Positions 9,784 through 64,000 of a stretch of DNA of 64,000 nt are shown here, piece after piece. Position 1 is the stretch's first letter. Every line of letters begins with the position of its first letter. The position numbers were made by a program, and so were the translations under genes. The notes below the pieces were generated by a model that was given only the letters and a program-made list of their open reading frames with translations, had not been told where the DNA came from and made no database searches. This DNA comes from Candidatus Adlerbacteria bacterium (GTDB taxonomy: Bacteria > Patescibacteriota > Minisyncoccia > Phycocordibacterales > SBAW01), in contig CAVVLG010000002.1 of NCBI GenBank assembly GCA_963749085.1, positions 19,178 through 83,177 on the forward strand, read 5' to 3'.

Positions 9784-10007
9784 TCTAACAAATTGTTATA
9801 AAAAAGAAAGCGCCCAACAGAAGTTAGACACGTTTTACATGGTAGTTGTCCCGACAGAGGTTGTTACAAAAAAGATTTTCCTGTTTGTCTTTACAATGCT
9901 CTCGACGGCCTGTTAGTTTTTGACCGTACTGGGTGCTGGCAGGTCCCCCAAAATTTTCTCACCAAGTGAACGGGCATTACTAAGCTCGTAATACACTAGA
10001 ACCAGTC

Positions 10008-10854: not shown

Positions 10855-11112
10855 ATGAAGAAAGGACATCGTGTCGCTCCTGAGGTAAAGGAGCAGATTT
10901 TAGGTCGCATTAAAAACGAAGGGGTCTCCATTGCAGAGGCAGCCAAGGAGCACGGCATCACCAGCCGGATCATTTACAAATGGCTCGGCATGGGGGCGCA
11001 GGGAGCGCCCACCTACGGGGAGGTCTCCAAACTCCGCAAGGAGAACGCCGAACTCAAACAGCTGGTGGGAGAGATCACTCTCAAGCTCTCTGAGGCCCAA
11101 AAAAAGAAGTGA
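10855..11112 (+). CDS. IS3-family transposase OrfA (HTH)
   Basis: MKKGHRVAPEVKEQILGRIKNEGVSIAEAAKEHGITSRIIYKWL...leucine-zipper-like tail. Ends at the A_AAA_AAG slippery heptamer at ~11100-11106. Confidence 0.8.
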   Translation: MKKGHRVAPEVKEQILGRIKNEGVSIAEAAKEHGITSRIIYKWLGMGAQGAPTYGEVSKLRKENAELKQLVGEITLKLSEAQKKK

Positions 11113-11927
11113 GAGACAACAGTACAGTCAACAAGACCCTGCTCGCCAAAGAGCTTGGCGTCTCGCGCCGGAGCCTCTACTACTATGCAACGAAACCAGC
11201 CAAGGACTGGACGCTCAAGTGCCGCATCGAGGAAGTACTGCGGGAGTTTCCCAGCTACGGGCACAAGCGACTGGCACTCCATCTCAAACTCAACAAGAAG
11301 CGGGTGCGCAGAGTCATGCGGCTTTTTGGCATCAAGCCCTACCGCAGGCGCGGTAGAAAACCCAAGCGGGACAAGACGCTCTCGACTCGTGCATACCCGA
11401 ACCTGCTCATGGTCATGCCGCCGGTCCGTCCACACCACATTTGGGTCGCCGACTTCACCTACCTGCCATTCCATGGACGGTTCGTGTACCTCGCCACGGT
11501 CATGGATGTTTTTGGCAGGGAGATTGTCGGCTGGAGCGTGCTCACGACGCACTCAACGCAGTTAGTACTCGGAGCGCTGTTTTCGGCCCTGCAGCAGCGA
11601 CCGCCTCCAGCGGTCTTCCACAGCGACAACGGTAGAGAGTATGGGTCCAAGGGCTTCATCGAAGCGCTCACCCTCTTGGGTGTTGCGGTATCCCGCTCAA
11701 AGAAAAGTTGTCCATGGGAGAACGGGTATCAAGAAAGTTTCTACTCTCAGTTCAAGGTGGACTTGGGAGATCCGGAGCGCTTTGAAACGCTTGGTGAGCT
11801 GGTGTATGAAATCCATCAGGCGATATGCCACTACAACACGAGGCGCATCCATTCCAGACTCCGGATGCCGCCCGCAGTGTTTGCCGCCGCTCACAGAACT
11901 GCTACACTACAAGCAATCGTTCACTAG
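11109..11927 (+). CDS. IS3-family transposase OrfB (DDE integrase core), reached by a -1 frameshift from OrfA
   Basis: HIWVADFTYLP...HSDNGREYGSKGF...SKKSCPWENGYQESF is the rve integrase DDE motif. It overlaps the orfA end. Confidence 0.8.
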   Translation: MRDNSTVNKTLLAKELGVSRRSLYYYATKPAKDWTLKCRIEEVLREFPSYGHKRLALHLKLNKKRVRRVMRLFGIKPYRRRGRKPKRDKTLSTRAYPNLLMVMPPVRPHHIWVADFTYLPFHGRFVYLATVMDVFGREIVGWSVLTTHSTQLVLGALFSALQQRPPPAVFHSDNGREYGSKGFIEALTLLGVAVSRSKKSCPWENGYQESFYSQFKVDLGDPERFETLGELVYEIHQAICHYNTRRIHSRLRMPPAVFAAAHRTATLQAIVH

Positions 11928-11960
11928 GTGCGCAAAGAAAAGGGTACCTTGCACTCTCTG

Positions 11961-53488: not shown

Positions 53489-53564
53489 GGGCCCGTAGCT
53501 TAGTTGGTAGAGCGCCTCATTTGCAATGAGGAGGTCAGGAGTTCGAATCTCCTCGGGTCCACCA
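53489..53564 (+). tRNA. tRNA-Ala (anticodon TGC), G3:U70, CCA encoded
   Basis: GGGCCCG...CCTCA-TTTGCAA-TGAGG...AGGAGTTCGAATCTCCT-CGGGTCC-A-CCA. Confidence 0.85.
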
Positions 53565-53576
53565 TAGTTATTTGTA

Positions 53577-53604
53577 TTGCAATCACACACAAAAAATTTA
53601 TACT
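53577..53604 (+). promoter_or_regulatory. Sigma-70-type promoter candidate (TTGCAA, 16 nt, TATACT) directly after tRNA-Ala(TGC), driving the 157-aa ORF
   Basis: Hexamers read directly from the sequence. An RBS AGGAA lies 8 nt before the ATG at 53663. Confidence 0.4.
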
Positions 53605-53662
53605 GTTCATAGACTTGTTATCTCGTCGCGCTTGACAGCGCATAACCTAGAGGAATGAACCT

Positions 53663-54136
53663 ATGGCCCTTCACGCTGATGTACGTTTACGGAGAAGCGA
53701 AGAAACTATACAGTTTCCTATGTCAAATGGGAAACCAATGGACTCAATTCGCGGGCGAAAGCCTCTGCCCTTGGTGATAAGTGGCAAGGCAGGAGGAATT
53801 ACCATTCTCTACAGTTTTAATCGCTGCGGGGGACCCATCCTTGGGGAAGAGGCGAAGCAAAATGTAGAAAAGGCATTTACTGAATCCAGAGTAAATGTCA
53901 TGAAACTTACTTTTGCTCGTTACAGCGACGACACTATTAACTGTACCGCGGACCTCGCTGAATCTCACGCTGGGCTAGGGACATACCGAGTTCCACTCTT
54001 CGTGCGGGGCGATATCACCATGTGTTTCGAATCGACCGATAACACTGGGCTTGCGTTCAACCTCGTTTATTGTCTTTGGAAAGTTTTCAAGCCCAAAAAC
54101 TATGTTCTCGATGCAAGTTTTTGGCAAAGTCGTTGA
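53663..54136 (+). CDS. Hypothetical protein (orphan; island cargo)
   Basis: ORF with an RBS, followed by a strong terminator. No recognisable motifs. Confidence 0.45.
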   Translation: MALHADVRLRRSEETIQFPMSNGKPMDSIRGRKPLPLVISGKAGGITILYSFNRCGGPILGEEAKQNVEKAFTESRVNVMKLTFARYSDDTINCTADLAESHAGLGTYRVPLFVRGDITMCFESTDNTGLAFNLVYCLWKVFKPKNYVLDASFWQSR

Positions 54137-54141
54137 AGCTC

Positions 54142-54172
54142 GCGTCGGTCTAAAGACCGACGCTTTCTTTTT
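54142..54172 (+). terminator. Rho-independent terminator
   Basis: GCGTCGGTC-TAAA-GACCGACGC hairpin followed by TTTCTTTTT. Confidence 0.7.
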
Positions 54173-54202
54173 ATATCAATCTCCTATACAGTTTTTCCTA
54201 AC

Positions 54203-54276
54203 GCACCCTTAGCTCAGTTGGCTAGAGCGCACCCTTCACACGGGTGAGGTCGCAGGTTCGAGTCCTGCAGGGTGCA
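54203..54276 (+). tRNA. tRNA-Val (anticodon CAC), no encoded CCA
   Basis: GCACCCT-TA-GCTC-AGTTGGCTA-GAGC-G-CACCC-TTCACAC-GGGTG-AGGTC-GCAGG-TTCGAGT-CCTGC-AGGGTGC-A. Confidence 0.8.
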
Positions 54277-54328
54277 CCTCTATATTTAATTTATTCAAGA
54301 TTTTCATTTGTACGTATGATTATTTATA

Positions 54329-55054
54329 ATGGACTTCAAAACGGCTGTCGATTTGTTAAATAGGGCTCTTATGAAAAGGCAGCCCGAGCATTTCAGTAGC
54401 TCCTGGATTTTCAAGCACACGCCATGCGCATATCATTATTTTCGACTCAACGTCAGGGCAGTAACCGGCGAGATTGATTGGGATACCATCACCACAGAGT
54501 TGGATCGGCCATTTCAAAAACGATGGACACGACGCCGGCGAAAGCGCCGAGAATTGCTTAAGCTCTACAGAAGCAAGCCTGAAGTCCAAGCGATTTTCAA
54601 GAAGTACAAAAATCAGCAATATGTATTCCTCAGCGCCAAGACACCCGAGGAATGGCGTGCGAGAGATCGTATCAGTATTGCACTCATGCGTGTCGCTCAG
54701 AAAGGCAATATCACTGCACAAAAAGAATTAATCGATCTCCTTATCTACACCGTTCAAAACTGGACTGAGCGGTACCCGTACTTTTATAGATGGAAGCACT
54801 ATAGTGATTTGCTACCCGACCATATTGAGACCTGCATGCGACGATATCATTTCACCGGCTCGTTCATTCAGTATCTGTACATATCTTTGATGTACTCAGC
54901 CCGAGCGCTCAAACGCATCCAAGTGTATTCTCTCGACAAGCCAATTTATGACGATGACGAAATAACATTAGCTGAACGCGTGGTTCAAGATCCGACTACC
55001 GGTGAGATAAAGATATACGAAGCCGGTCACTTAAGCGACTATCAAAATCTCTAA
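54329..55054 (+). CDS. Hypothetical protein (orphan; island cargo)
   Basis: 241-aa ORF with a basic stretch RWTRRRRKRRELLKLY. No recognisable domain. Confidence 0.45.
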   Translation: MDFKTAVDLLNRALMKRQPEHFSSSWIFKHTPCAYHYFRLNVRAVTGEIDWDTITTELDRPFQKRWTRRRRKRRELLKLYRSKPEVQAIFKKYKNQQYVFLSAKTPEEWRARDRISIALMRVAQKGNITAQKELIDLLIYTVQNWTERYPYFYRWKHYSDLLPDHIETCMRRYHFTGSFIQYLYISLMYSARALKRIQVYSLDKPIYDDDEITLAERVVQDPTTGEIKIYEAGHLSDYQNL

Positions 55055-55130
55055 AAAAAGTTGAGCAAGCGCTCGACCCTTTTGTCTTTTGTTGTTATAT
55101 TTTTGGGGTCGAAAGCTGTGCGGGGCGTCT

Positions 55131-55191
55131 TATAGTGGCATTATACACGCTTCGGGTGCGTGAAACCCGAGTTCGATTCTCGGCGCCCCGA
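55131..55191 (+). tRNA. tRNA-Pro (anticodon CGG), atypical D region (short D-loop, no nucleotide 26), no CCA
   Basis: Acceptor CGGGGCG/CGCCCCG is a perfect 7-bp stem. Anticodon stem CACGC/GCGTG with loop TTCGGGT. T-arm CCGAG-TTCGATT-CTCGG. 61 nt to the discriminator A; D-arm pairing is non-canonical. Confidence 0.55.
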
Positions 55192-55206
55192 CAGGGTTTT
55201 CGACAG

Positions 55207-55277
55207 GGGCTCATAGTAAAGTGGTATTACGCGGCATTCGCATTGCCGAGGCCCGGGTCCGATTCCCGGTGAGTCCA
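55207..55277 (+). tRNA. tRNA-Ala (anticodon CGC), G3:U70, 7-nt D-loop, no CCA
   Basis: GGGCTCA-TA-GTAA-AGTGGTA-TTAC-G-CGGCA-TTCGCAT-TGCCG-AGGC-CCGGG-TCCGATT-CCCGG-TGAGTCC-A. The G3:U70 Ala identity pair is present. Confidence 0.65.
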
Positions 55278-55282
55278 CAAAT

Positions 55283-55311
55283 TTGACAGACATATAAAAT
55301 ATGTGATACAC
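55283..55311 (+). promoter_or_regulatory. Cassette promoter copy A: perfect -35 TTGACA, 16 nt, TG-extended -10 GATACA. It begins the conserved ~70-nt leader that ends in RBS GGGAGG
   Basis: TTGACAGACATATAAAATATGTGATACA read directly. The same module recurs at 55993, 56574 and 63775. Confidence 0.45.
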
Positions 55312-55378
55312 AAATAAAAGACATCGGACTTAGTAATCCGCTCGTTCTCACCATTCTAACGCGCCAAGGGAGGCGGCA

Positions 55379-55696
55379 ATGGCACTATCCTTCGCACTGA
55401 GTATCTATTTCACAGTCGGTCTTCTCTTTTCGGTTGGATTCTGGACGGTCATCATAAAGGCTTACGCTTGTGAAAGAAGCGAGGGGACACTCCATGCAAT
55501 ACAAGAAGAATTGAATACGCAATCTGCCTACCTCGACACTTTGTTGCAAGTGTATCCAGCCCTTATCCTACTGCTTGCGGTATTTACTGCCATCATCTGG
55601 CCTATACCATTGATGATAATACTGCTCAGCGTAGTAAAGGGACTTATAAGTGGACTTCGGACAGGCATTCGAGCACTTCTGGCAAGGAGACGCTGA
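55379..55696 (+). CDS. Cassette ORF 1: small two-TM membrane protein (105 aa)
   Basis: RBS GGGAGGCGGCA-ATG. Two hydrophobic helices. Followed by a terminator. Confidence 0.5.
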   Translation: MALSFALSIYFTVGLLFSVGFWTVIIKAYACERSEGTLHAIQEELNTQSAYLDTLLQVYPALILLLAVFTAIIWPIPLMIILLSVVKGLISGLRTGIRALLARRR

Positions 55697-55706
55697 AGAA
55701 TTTAAC

Positions 55707-55740
55707 AGCCGTCGCTGAAATATGGGGCGGCTTTTTCTTT
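55707..55740 (+). terminator. Intrinsic terminator of cassette 1
   Basis: AGCCGTC...GGCGGCT stem followed by TTTTTCTTT. Confidence 0.5.
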
Positions 55741-55997
55741 ATAACGCCACTTAATCCAATACCCACTCTGTGCCTCTTACACCAATTATCCGCTAAACCC
55801 CTTCAAGAGCTTTCTGTAACACCGGACTGCTCTGGTAGTACCCCAAAAACCGAGAAAGATACTGTTTTAACCTGTTCGAGGTATACTCCCCACGGTGGGG
55901 TAGGACACCAAACTCTCCAATTCCCGAATACTCGCTCGTATCTCCTCCTTCCACCCCAAAAGTTCTGAAAGCCACCCTATTTGCCCACAAATTTGAC
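55735..55997 (+). repeat. Cassette 3' module copy 1 (conserved core, a ~120-bp extra segment, and the tRNA-3'-end-like junction ...GCCCACAAATTTGACA)
   Basis: ACTTAATCCAATACCC...GGACTGCTCTGGTAGTACCCC-AAAAACCGAGAAAGATA is shared with the copies at 56405 and 57165. Confidence 0.6.
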
Positions 55998-56021
55998 AGA
56001 TATTTCAATATATGGTAAATA
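55993..56021 (+). promoter_or_regulatory. Cassette promoter copy B (TTGACA, 17 nt, TGgTAAATA)
   Basis: Diverged copy of the promoter/leader. A leader hairpin ACGGATT-TAG-TAATCCGT follows. Confidence 0.4.
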
Positions 56022-56085
56022 AATAACAGTTACGGATTTAGTAATCCGTTCGTTCCATCAATTCTAACCCGCATGGGAGGACATC

Positions 56086-56373
56086 GTGCAAGAGAATAAG
56101 TCGATAATTTCCCAGACTCGGGGAGTGCAGCTGTTGGGTTGGACAGGCTCTGTACTCGCGCTGAGCATGTATCTAAGCTTTATTGACCAGATTCAGCTGA
56201 ACATCGCCGGTCATAAAGGCTCATGGATTATCCCACTCATCGGTACACTCAGTTGTAGTGTCTGGACAGCTTATGCGTGGTTGTTAAAGCCCCGCAACTG
56301 GCCGCTTATCGTATGTAATGTGCCAATGGTCATCCTTGGGCCTATGACCGTATTAACTACCTTCTTCTGGTAG
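56086..56373 (+). CDS. Cassette ORF 2: small polytopic membrane protein (95 aa, GTG start)
   Basis: RBS GGGAGGACATC-GTG. Three hydrophobic segments. A terminator follows directly. Confidence 0.45.
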   Translation: MQENKSIISQTRGVQLLGWTGSVLALSMYLSFIDQIQLNIAGHKGSWIIPLIGTLSCSVWTAYAWLLKPRNWPLIVCNVPMVILGPMTVLTTFFW

Positions 56374-56379
56374 CACAAC

Positions 56380-56407
56380 CCCCGGCAGCGATGCCGGGGC
56401 TTTCTTT
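56380..56407 (+). terminator. Intrinsic terminator of cassette 2
   Basis: CCCCGGCA-GCGA-TGCCGGGG hairpin followed by CTTTCTTT. Confidence 0.65.
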
Positions 56408-56576
56408 AGGTCTCGTTACTTAATCCAATACCCTCACTGTGTCTCTCCCATAATTCTTCCATCAGGCGCTTTCAAGTGCTTTCTGCAGCGCGGGACTGCT
56501 CTGGTAGTACTCCCAAAACCGAGAAAGATAGGTTTTTAGGGAGTTCAATGTTTTAATGCCTGTGTCCACAAATTTG
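56405..56576 (+). repeat. Cassette 3' module copy 2 (~170 bp, ends GTGTCCACAAATTTGACA)
   Basis: Aligned by eye to copies 1 and 3. The terminal ...GGGAGTTCAATGTTTTAATGCCTGTGTCCA resembles a tRNA T-arm and acceptor 3' end. Confidence 0.6.
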
Positions 56577-56693
56577 ACAGACATATAAAATATGTGATAC
56601 ACAAATAAAAGACATCGGACTTAGTAATCCGCTCGTTCTCACCATTCTAAAGCGCCAAGGGAGGCGGCAATGGCACTATCCTTGCACACTCAT
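56568..56693 (+). repeat. Near-identical (~98%) duplicate of 55272-55397: promoter, leader, RBS and the first five codons ATGGCACTATCCTT
   Basis: Direct comparison shows one mismatch in the leader (CTAACGCG vs CTAAAGCG) and divergence only after codon 5. Confidence 0.8.
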
Positions 56694-57153
56694 CAACGTC
56701 AAAACCGCAACGCCTGAACCGATAGCGGCAATACACGCTTCTATCGCAATGCCACACGTGTATCGCAGACCCGTTTACGTGAATGGACGTCGCTATTTGG
56801 ACGGCACAGGAGGTATACCTTTTCCCGCGCGAGAAGTTATCGAGCGGTGGGGTCTCACCGGACTTGTTGTACTCGCTAATCAACCACGGGATTGGCGACG
56901 CTCCCTAAAACGTAAGCTACTTGAGTTTGGAGCAATCTCACTTCTGCCTAAAGGTCCGCGCAAAACTTCTCGAAAGCGTTTGGAAATATTTGGAGAAAAT
57001 CTGCAGTATCTACGCTCGGGCCGCGTTCCTTACCTGATTGTCTGGACTGACGATGAGGTAGAAATATTCGAGCGTGACCAAACCAAACTACGAGGCACCG
57101 CAGAACGAGCGGGGGAGTTTATGAGCAGTCTACTTGAACGTGCGGGCACTTGA
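56669..57153 (+). pseudogene. Patatin-like phospholipase, C-terminal half only, fused in frame to the duplicated cassette leader (an ATG...TGA mini-ORF, then an in-frame ATG at 56749)
   Basis: ...AAIHASIAMPHVYRRPVYVNGRRYLDGTGGIPFP... matches the patatin ASxAxPxxFxPVxIdGxxYVDGG region containing the catalytic-dyad Asp. The upstream half with GxSxG is absent, and the sequence before it is the shared leader. Confidence 0.5.
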
Positions 57154-57170
57154 GCCCGCACGTTTTCTTT
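57140..57170 (+). terminator. Intrinsic terminator of cassette 3
   Basis: GTGCGGGCACTTGAGCCCGCAC hairpin overlapping the stop codon, followed by GTTTTCTTT. Confidence 0.6.
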
Positions 57171-57337
57171 AGGTCTCGTTACTTAATCCAATACCCTCAC
57201 TGTGTCCCTCCTTAGGTCTCTCTGCTAAGCCCGCTCAAGCGCTTTTTGTAGAGCCGGACTGCTCTGGTAATACTCCCAAAACCGAGAAAGATAGATTTTT
57301 ATGGAGTTCAATGTTTTAATGCCTGTGTCCACAAATT
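57165..57337 (+). repeat. Cassette 3' module copy 3 (ends GTGTCCACAAATTTaaaa; the TTGACA is lost)
   Basis: Aligned to copies 1 and 2. The next ATG, at 57348, lies 17 nt after the junction. Confidence 0.6.
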
Positions 57338-57347
57338 TAAAATTCTT

Positions 57348-57863
57348 ATGACACTCACCACTCACGCATTGGTTGGAGCCGCCGCTGCGAGTCTTTTCTC
57401 ACAGAAACCGGTCCTTGCATTTGCGGCCGGTTTTGTGAGCCATTTTTGTATTGATGCCATTCCACATTGGGATTATCGGCCAGAGTCCATGATCAAGGAT
57501 AAAAATAATAAACTGGCGACGGACATGATACTCGGCAAATCTTTTTTTAAAGATCTGATCTTTATAGGAAGTGATGCGCTACTCGGGCTTGCCCTCAGTG
57601 TCCTTATTTTTAGTCTATGGCTCTTTCACGTGCCTATAGCCATAATTACCTTGGGCGTCATCGCAGCCATACTGCCTGACCCACTGCAATTTATCTACTA
57701 CAAAACTCACTCAAAGCTTTTGGAGCCGCTCCAGAAATTCCACGCGGTGTGGCTGCAGCAAAAAAGTCCCATAAACGTTCCGGCATGGATAGGGCTCGGT
57801 CTGCAAGCCCTGCTCGTAGCGACAGTCGTCGGCATCTTAAAGATAATTCACCCTGTGTTATAA
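57348..57863 (+). CDS. Polytopic membrane protein upstream of atpB (possibly YdjM/DUF457-like metal-dependent membrane hydrolase); function unknown
   Basis: MTLTTHALVGAAAASLF...HFCIDAIPHWDY... His-rich N-terminus followed by about four TM helices. Confidence 0.4.
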   Translation: MTLTTHALVGAAAASLFSQKPVLAFAAGFVSHFCIDAIPHWDYRPESMIKDKNNKLATDMILGKSFFKDLIFIGSDALLGLALSVLIFSLWLFHVPIAIITLGVIAAILPDPLQFIYYKTHSKLLEPLQKFHAVWLQQKSPINVPAWIGLGLQALLVATVVGILKIIHPVL

Positions 57864-63698: not shown

Positions 63699-63769
63699 GG
63701 GCCCATAGTATAGCGGTAGAACGGTTCCATGGCATGGAACAGGTCGGGGTTCGACTCCCCGTGGGTCCA
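63699..63769 (+). tRNA. tRNA-Ala (anticodon GGC), G3:U70, no CCA
   Basis: GGGCCCA-TA-GTAT-AGCGGTA-GAAC-G-GTTCC-ATGGCAT-GGAAC-AGGTC-GGGGTTCGACTCCCC-GTGGGTCC-A. Confidence 0.75.
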
Positions 63770-63774
63770 CAAAT

Positions 63775-63802
63775 TTGACAAGACCACATATATTTGTATA
63801 CT
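63775..63802 (+). promoter_or_regulatory. Promoter/leader module copy E (TTGACA, 16 nt, TG-extended TATACT) directly after tRNA-Ala(GGC); interrupted 18 bp later by the IS3 copy
   Basis: Same tCCACAAATTTGACA junction as the cassette copies. Confidence 0.45.
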
Positions 63803-63819: not shown

Positions 63820-64000
63820 TGGCAGGTACCCCGAAATTTTCTCACCAAGTCGATGAGATTAACCGCTCATTTTTAGTAGAATCGAGGTATGAAGAAAGCA
63901 CATCGCATATCGCAGGAGGTGAAGGATCAGATCCTTGGGCGCATTAGAAACGAAGGGGTGCCGGTCGCGCAAGCGGCCAAAGAGCACGGCCTCCATGAGA
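63820..64000 (+). mobile_element. Second IS3-family element (left end, partial; diverged paralogue of the 9937 copy)
   Basis: Left inverted repeat TGGCAGGTACCCCGAAATTTTCTCACCAAGT, about 90% identical to 9937-9967. OrfA starts at 63889. Confidence 0.7.
63889..64000 (+). CDS. IS3-family transposase OrfA (partial, runs off the window end)
   Basis: MKKAHRISQEVKDQILGRIRNEGVPVAQAAKEHGLHE, compared with MKKGHRVAPEVKEQILGRIKNEGVSIAEAAKEHGITS in copy 1. Confidence 0.75.
   Translation, partial: MKKAHRISQEVKDQILGRIRNEGVPVAQAAKEHGLHE

Follow-up and report, generated by a model that had tools for sequence, protein, structure and literature searches.

Partitioned integrases of the SSV1 type, tyrosine recombinases found in viruses and plasmids of archaea, have their attP within the integrase gene, which integration into a tRNA gene therefore splits into two fragments that flank the element. 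The Dehalococcoides ssrA islands, among the described systems closest to the locus studied here, stand in tandem downstream of the tDNA, each flanked by direct repeats of the tmRNA 3' end (McMurdie et al. 2011, PMC3146451). In these islands, DsiB, a CcrB-like large serine recombinase (LSR) of ~540 aa, is encoded beside attL by an ORF that has no stop before att and runs into the tDNA; it was suggested that a dsiB-type gene may be complete only on the circle or beside an island supplying the 3' fragment, this 'requisite 3' gene fragment' being a hypothesis only (PMC3146451). Integrase-less islands occurring in the same arrays were read as cis-mobilizable or as products of accretion (PMC3146451).

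Here, a patatin-like gene fragment was followed up within the window, i.e. the whole 64-kb stretch of DNA that was analysed. The reading that we favour, with a probability of about 0.75, is that this patatin stump is part of a 2-kb insertion separating tRNA-Ala(cgc) from ORF171, and that the insertion is an accretion array of three recombinase-less remnants of elements whose LSR gene extends across attP.

Organization of the array at tRNA-Ala(cgc)

Three units follow tRNA-Pro and tRNA-Ala(cgc), and are themselves followed by ORF171 and the atp operon (Table 1). The rest of the neighbourhood is of housekeeping nature (tgt, uvrBAC, ddl, atp operon), and the GC content is 51.7% for the window versus 47.1% for the array. 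The GTCCAC that ends tRNA-Ala(cgc), together with the AAATTT downstream of it, recurs at each unit boundary, GTCCACAAATTT being thereby found as tandem direct repeats of the tDNA end, at the tRNA-Ala end and at the three unit boundaries. That the region is a real array of repeated units, as stated in the original prediction, is thus borne out. All units share the same plan, made of the core GTCCACAAATTT, a leader (perfect TTGACA box, hairpin, and SD), one ORF, an intrinsic terminator, and a repeat of ~160-180 nt called D1. The TTGACA box is a putative promoter element; a sigma-70 scan gave the leader promoters no score, which is attributed to their imperfect -10 boxes. Regarding the products of the units, the ORF95 match to Pfam MtN3_slv (E=6.5e-5, 23.3 bits) falls just under the cut-off of 23.7.

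Table 1. Features of the array and its flanks, in window positions
Feature	Position	Strand	Remarks
tRNA-Ala(cgc), array start (attL/attB-side junction J0)	55207-55278	+	ARAGORN, Rfam
Core repeat GTCCACAAATTT	55273-55284	+	tRNA-Ala 3' end; pattern search, alignments A1 and A2
Further core copies	55983-55994 (GCCCACAAATTT), 56564-56575, 57327-57338		Pattern search, alignments A1 and A2
Unit A: leader and ORF105 (55379-55696), membrane ORFan	55279-55696	+	TTGACA -35-like box, hairpin CGGACTTAGTAATCCG, SD GGGAGG
Orphan serine-recombinase tail copy 1 (...SNRLKQYLSRFLGYYQSSPVLQKALEGV, stop)	55793-55894	-	Most degenerate; ~100 nt inserted between tail and core
Unit B: leader variant and ORF95 (56086-56373), SemiSWEET/PQ-loop-like	55999-56373	+	Leader alignment, Pfam MtN3_slv
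Unit B terminator	56380-56399		
Orphan serine-recombinase tail copy 2 (VDTGIKTLNSLKTYLSRFWEYYQSSPALQKALESA, stop)	56462-56569	-	Begins at core hexamer
Leader copy of unit C	56561-56683	+	98% duplicate of 55270-55392, with first 14 nt of ORF105
uORF MALSLHTHQRQNRNA (stop), 15 codons	56670-56717	+	Leader SD and ATG 56670, TGA 56715-56717; frame differs from that of patatin
Patatin-like phospholipase pseudogene (predicted), C-terminal ~155 codons	56686-57153	+	First in-frame start ATG 56749, without SD
Intrinsic terminator hairpin	57137-57164	+	11-bp perfect inverted repeat, then T run; overlaps patatin stop codon
Conserved non-coding motif after tail stop	57163-57206, also 56400-56443 (and 55746-55773)		Minus-strand sequence ..CACAGTGAGGGTATTGGATTAAGT..
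Orphan serine-recombinase tail copy 3 (VDTGIKTLNSIKIYLSRFWEYYQSSPALQKALERA, stop)	57225-57332	-	attR-type junction with host flank
ORF171, membrane protein, native host flank	57348-57863	+	Followed by atpB operon from 57867; atpB = Pfam ATP-synt_A

The distal limit of the array can be set by comparison with another locus, L058, which shows 69% homology to the window over 628 nt and has the same junction, namely a tail, GTCCAC, and an ORF171 homologue. As the junction between tail copy 3, GTCCAC, and ORF171 is also present in L058, ORF171 belongs to the native flank, and 55279-57326 is the inserted part. On the tRNA-proximal side of each internal core stands a promoter-like leader, not an LSR 3' end, so that the internal junctions are not canonical attP or attL sites.

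Within the array, ARAGORN and Rfam detected no RNA family (for D1 even at E<=1), and no attC-like inverted repeats were found, the only hairpins being those of terminators. Besides, the 64-kb window contains no LSR body but only 3' tails of such enzymes, and none of the ten neighbouring ORFs scanned with Pfam has a site-specific recombinase domain, one IS3-family rve transposase being encoded 44 kb away. Given the lack of an LSR body in the window, the units of 0.6-0.8 kb are read as recombinase-less remnants, or else as cis-mobilizable mini-islands, standing in tandem.

Other features of the window deserve mention. At 63767-63780, directly after tRNA-Ala(ggc), stands the same CCACAAATTTGACA as after tRNA-Ala(cgc) and at the unit boundaries, as the fifth of five matches obtained by pattern search (0.45 expected); it may be an att half-site common to these places, a promoter box, or the trace of a former integration event at the second tRNA-Ala. 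Among the tRNA genes of the cluster at 53489-55200 (Ala-tgc, Val, Pro, Ala-cgc) stand two ORFans that both have a terminator of their own. One is ORF157 (53663-54136), with a weak AdoMet_dc match, and the other ORF241 (54329-55054), with no family match; they may be what is left of older islands. An IS3-family insertion sequence (HTH OrfA and rve-domain OrfB, 81 bits against Pfam rve) adjoins tRNA-Leu at 10855-11930, and a second copy (63889-64000) begins directly behind tRNA-Ala(ggc), at the end of the window. A near-identical stretch of 31 nt, the putative IS end, is found at 9937-9967 and 63820-63850, i.e. 917 and 68 nt upstream of OrfA, respectively; these unequal distances indicate that ~850 nt are inserted in the first copy.

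The patatin-like ORF and its missing half

The 134-aa ORF at 56749-57153 (+) was confirmed, and the same frame is open upstream to 56578. In a phmmer comparison with 1.8 billion representatives, the fragment obtained 218 matches at E<=1e-3. Those that are not themselves fragments are nearly all 260-340 aa long, and their residues ~150-305 pair with residues 4-156 of the fragment, the best relative being P0002 (58% identity, E=1e-50), while P0003 reaches 50%. A word-seeded protein search returned the fragment alone, and a full HMMER scan was needed to reach these relatives. Seven of the eight top relatives tested pass the gathering score of Pfam Patatin, P0006 being the exception, and a near-identical copy of P0002 bears the IMG name 'predicted patatin/cPLA2 family phospholipase'. 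The placement of the ORF itself in PF01734 is more nuanced: the profile does match the Asp block (positions 153-187 of 191), but only in the extended translation, and weakly, with E=0.005 and 17.5 bits for a gathering score of 27.7.

The full-length relatives measure 290-320 aa. Alignment A3 shows GGxRG and G(I/V)S(T/S)GA (GxSxG) in the N-terminal half of most relatives, and the window sequence opens at '..TLINVKTATPEPIAAIHASIAMP..'. The invariant residues of the C-terminal half are retained in the fragment, including the catalytic Asp, since the YLDGTGG of the window falls on the invariant Asp column; the claim that the ORF keeps the C-terminal Asp block of patatins was thus correct. The same holds true for the absence of the Ser/oxyanion half: with eight full-length relatives as tblastn queries, no N-terminal half was detected in any frame of the 64 kb, and neither the oxyanion-hole motif G-G-x-R/K nor the nucleophile motif G-x-S-x-G was found in any frame of the window. 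Every tblastn alignment of the full-length relatives begins at 56686-56689 which, together with the lack of an N-terminal half, identifies the ORF as the true 3' half of a patatin-like gene. As the motifs present in most relatives are missing from the window, we are dealing with a gene fragment and not with an enzyme; deprived of the Ser nucleophile and of the oxyanion hole, the stump cannot be a lipase. Taken together, these data predict that the 134-aa ORF is a non-functional 3' stump, i.e. a pseudogene, of a patatin-like phospholipase gene.

The truncation junction

The region preceding the stump corresponds to repeat D2, a 123-nt copy of the beginning of the array comprising the last 9 nt of tRNA-Ala(cgc), a leader of ~100 nt with the SD GGGAGG, and the first 14 nt of ORF105 (ATGGCACTATCCTT). 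Since homology to patatin starts 3-6 nt past the end of this copy, the truncation point is the edge of the duplicated leader, in agreement with the proposal that the shared leader replaces the missing half. The further statement that the leader happens to read through in frame has to be divided: no stop intervenes in the patatin frame, but the leader ATG is in another frame, so that there is no leader-patatin fusion, and no ATG, GTG, or TTG precedes 56749 in the patatin frame. The out-of-frame leader ATG, whose reading stops after 15 codons, indicates a recently truncated pseudogene.

At the junction, GCAC is present in both parents (..CCTT-C-GCAC-TGAG in ORF105 and ..CCTT-GCAC-ACTC on the patatin side), and this 4-nt identity suggests that a microhomology-mediated deletion may have taken place. 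The two leader copies are spaced by 1291 nt, which is the length of units A and B. In a first step, unequal crossing-over between repeats would have duplicated units A and B; in a second one, a deletion would have removed the sequence from codon 5 of the second ORF105 copy to ~codon 150 of patatin, and the product would be composed of the leader, the 15-codon out-of-frame uORF, the patatin 3' half, and the terminator. This order of duplication then deletion is an argument of parsimony, as it would be the simplest history. The 98% identity of the leaders and the lack of any stop in 157 codons argue for a recent event.

The stump may still be transcribed, and one could imagine that the 134-aa ORF works as a stand-alone C-terminal patatin subdomain, as a regulator or a decoy, given that its 157 codons are free of stop and frameshift, that the C-terminal invariant residues are kept, and that leader and terminator are retained. 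Such a function is nevertheless highly improbable. ATG 56749 is not preceded by an SD and comes after the out-of-frame uORF, and the intact frame is explained by recency, as testified by the 98% D2 repeat. In addition, the two short patatin homologues that were checked bring it no support: the P0038 gene begins 29 nt from the edge of its contig and P0009 is on a contig of 676 bp, and both are best explained as assembly truncations rather than as genuine C-terminal-only patatins.

The D1 repeat as a probable severed recombinase tail

Each unit ends in a minus-strand coding fragment, VD..KTLNxLKxYLSRFWxYYQSSPxLQKALExA followed by a stop. Between D1 copies 2 and 3, nine codons differ synonymously and three non-synonymously, 10 of the 14 differences being at third positions; the frame stops at the same position in the three copies (TAG, TGA, and TAG), and the other reading frames score worse and look non-coding. 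Homologues of the tail are called as ORFs of 45-65 aa in other metagenomes. Degenerate-pattern scans retrieved this 35-codon module in 48 genome-contig loci and 73 metagenome loci, to which contigs L004-L009 are added (>120 loci). All module loci bearing organism or phylum names are Patescibacteria MAGs, and relatives belong to Kaiserbacteria, Campbellbacteria, and other Paceibacteria; no copy of the module was found in IMG/VR, and a degenerate D1 pattern had 0 hits among GTDB representatives. The ORF around the module is always short (31-183 codons), and in L009 the serine codons AGC AGT are switched to the other family, TCC TCG, confirming that the module is under protein-level selection.

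The conservation of the module always starts at a hexamer that reads as a tDNA 3' end on the opposite strand. In 96 of the 133 module copies this hexamer is GTGGAC, complementary to the GTCCAC that ends tRNA-Ala, with tRNA-Ala nearby in 10 loci and tmRNA in 7; it is GTGCAC beside tRNA-Ile(tat) and tRNA-Val (2/2) and GTGGAA, with 13 shared nt, beside one type of tmRNA. In many loci, the hexamer is preceded upstream by a terminator hairpin like that found after a tDNA. On the other side, past the tail stop, a non-coding motif is 100% identical over 43 nt in copies 2 and 3, while 14 of the 102 nt of the neighbouring coding tail differ. This motif lies 15-40 nt past the stop and reads roughly CACA-N4-5-GGTATTGAAT on the tail strand (loci L009-L130); a related motif is visible in the flanks of most of the 104 distinct loci, of which 26 comply with the strict pattern.

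Identities among the three tails of the window amount to 76-87%, and those with tails of other genomes to 70-88%. As the window tails diverge from each other about as much as from those of other genomes, separate acquisitions are argued for rather than local duplication; unlike the tails, the 98% leader copy is local and recent. Two recombinase tails separated by 0.6-3.2 kb, a space occupied by small ORFs, were also seen in each of five other loci (L029, L052, L056, L106, and L112), three of which have organism titles, all of them Patescibacteria-type MAGs, and tandem arrays are hence not unique to the window.

Two other readings of D1 were discarded. Its right end resembles a T-arm (GAGTTCAAT...GTCCAC), and D1 was considered as a decayed piece of tRNA or tmRNA; ARAGORN and Rfam returned nothing for it, its stems do not pair, and the substitutions follow a coding pattern, so that the T-arm likeness is better read as that of an att half-site mimicking the tDNA. 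A candidate hairpin, CTCCCAAAACC...GGTTTTTAGGGAG, is not kept in copies 1 and 3.

A serine recombinase gene proposed to extend across attP

The identity of the tails arises from loci in which the enzyme body is also present. In 14 loci, an LSR of ~490-560 aa is encoded on the strand of the module, 1-5 kb downstream of it, and abuts a tRNA or tmRNA gene of opposite strand. These LSRs display the Pfam domains Resolvase, Recombinase, and Zn_ribbon_recom, and score against the NCBIfam models XisF/CcrB/CcrC and the TP901-1 integrase catalytic domain. In seven loci (L010, L012, L033, L035, L042, L046, and L054), the 3' end of the LSR ORF can be seen, and none of the seven has a stop before the core: '...GYRT...R(I/L)FEEFxxxxxxx' enters the core hexamer and continues into the tDNA antisense, in the codon phase (GTG GAC) of the module. 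A search with the reconstructed C-terminus, in which the LSR end was joined to the module, retrieved P0155, where both parts are contiguous ('...RLFEEFVLENSSTVDQTYKTLNQMRVYLSAFWDFYRGAPQLQAVLGISS', then stop). Its residues 10-130 align to residues 403-523 of the L042 LSR (E=2e-32), and tail copy 2 of the window aligns to its residues 129-160 (E=3e-11); P0155, which is 5'-truncated and stands on a 1.5-kb contig, is the sole contiguous ORF of LSR and tail that was found. The stop-less LSR ends, the shared codon phase, and the contiguity in P0155 lead to the view that the module is the natural C-terminus of the LSR, and that the gene spans attP. Integration at the tDNA 3' end would thereby leave the N-terminal part of the LSR on the tDNA side and its last ~35 codons at the distal end of the element. 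The D1 repeat, of 161 nt, that follows the cargo ORF of each unit would be this severed tail. The predicted targets of these elements are the 3' ends of tRNA-Ala, tRNA-Val, tRNA-Ile, or tmRNA genes, and the predicted enzyme is CcrB/DsiB-like.

D1 could instead code for a separate small protein (35-46 aa), such as a recombination directionality factor or a regulator, starting at a conserved GTG. GTG GAC does stand at the start of 96 of the 133 module copies, the conservation is at the protein level, and gene callers predict the small ORFs mentioned above. We regard this option as very unlikely since the GTG has no upstream SD, while other genes here have GGGAGG, and since the hexamer co-varies with the 3' end of the adjoining tDNA; moreover, the stop-less LSR ORFs, the common codon phase, and the contiguous P0155 speak in favour of a severed tail.

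In one of the loci, L012 (9820-10041), the LSR ORF leads into 22 nt of the tRNA-Ala(tgc) 3' end; the tRNA-Ala(tgc) gene itself stands complete ~80 nt beyond this fragment, behind a terminator, the displaced tDNA fragment being at attL. Such an arrangement does not follow from simple integration.

Cargo of the elements and relation to defence

The original prediction regarded the patatin as cassette cargo suggestive of effector or defence shuffling, and the neighbouring membrane peptides as possible immunity or holin-like factors. At E<=1e-3, PADLOC 2.0 (5027 defence models) gave no match for the fragment, P0002, ORF105, or ORF171. The search for an intact version in the same cassette context led elsewhere: intact relatives have an ordinary chromosomal context, L001/L002 showing the gene between smpB and ftsH, L131 upstream of ftsH, and L003 before gatB, with no D1 or leader sequence around it. 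A defence role for the window patatin is hence not supported. Nor are the neighbours shown to be holins or immunity peptides; ORF95 is SemiSWEET/PQ-loop-like and ORF171 belongs to the host flank. It can be added that the intact patatin gene immediately upstream of ftsH, beside smpB (L001 5477-8926; L131 29-2510), is by its smpB-side position close to the tmRNA locus, one of the sites that the LSR family targets.

As for the proposal that the array shuffles effector or defence cargo, indirect support comes from relatives, whose cargo between tail and tDNA includes type I R-M and Fic (L004) or an AriA/NsnB/PtuA-like ATPase (L031), indicating that this element family can carry defence genes; the array itself is made of recombinase-less remnants and is not an integron. 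An active integron-like cassette platform, in which the patatin would be a mobile cassette and the membrane ORFs immunity or holin functions, would be in line with this cargo, with the repeated unit boundaries, with the single ORF, leader, and terminator of each unit, and with the cis-mobilization proposed for integrase-less Dehalococcoides islands (PMC3146451). It is unlikely in view of a window that contains neither a recombinase nor attC-like inverted repeats, of the lack of PADLOC matches for the patatin family and the window ORFs, of the intact patatin being an ordinary chromosomal gene by ftsH, of ORF171 being host flank, and of a patatin truncation that results from an illegitimate and not from a site-specific junction.

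A related and broader view, which we consider doubtful, is that the tRNA-Ala/tmRNA arrays of ultra-small Patescibacteria-like genomes form a working cassette platform with a self-splitting integrase, the orphan tails and their motif serving as re-arming half-genes or recombination sites. The integrase would then be whole only on the circular, excised form, or once a newly arriving element has inserted beside an orphan tail, and promoter-bearing units of one gene would be captured and reshuffled.

Returning to the accretion array of recombinase-less remnants, there is nothing unusual in an island remnant that contains a truncated accessory gene, and the ORF should be annotated as a pseudogene and not as a defence effector. 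Of wider significance, the >120 loci provide sequence-level evidence for a family of LSRs encoded across their own attP, from which integration would remove a conserved C-terminus of 35 residues. This partition suggests a built-in switch that may act on integrase activity. In practical terms, the YLSRFW tail is a simple marker for island boundaries and integration history in Patescibacteria MAGs, whose mobile elements are poorly charted.

Comparison with known systems

The C-terminal Asp block of the stump is common to PF01734 phospholipases, including defence effectors, from which it differs by the missing Ser nucleophile and oxyanion hole. With integron cassettes, the array shares tandem one-gene units beside a fixed site. 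Unlike an integron, it has no IntI and no attC hairpin sites, its units have their own promoter-like leader and terminator, and its boundaries consist of a tDNA-end repeat and of a recombinase gene fragment, i.e. a coding repeat.

The likeness to SSV1-type integrases is in mechanism only, the enzyme here being of the Resolvase/Recombinase/Zn-ribbon type, with its last ~35 codons split off. The split-LSR arrangement, analogous to this archaeal partition, was previously only suspected for DsiB of Dehalococcoides. With the ssrA islands of these bacteria, the elements share the tandem units, the tDNA 3'-end repeats, the LSR scoring against CcrB/XisF, and the occurrence of integrase-less members. 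They differ by their Patescibacteria-like host, by their targets (tRNA-Ala, tRNA-Val, and tRNA-Ile in addition to tmRNA), by a core repeat of 6-13 nt versus 20 bp, and by their smaller size (3-5 kb, and 0.6-0.8 kb with one gene each for the units of the window). The LSR ORF overlapping att is seen in the seven related loci listed above, while the window holds the 3' tails alone. Finally, whereas the displaced 3' part was a hypothesis in Dehalococcoides, it is here a conserved tail of 35 codons, contiguous with the LSR in one sequence. The array is thus a variant of the known kind of serine-recombinase tDNA island, and the partitioned-integrase tail is the most interesting by-product of its analysis.
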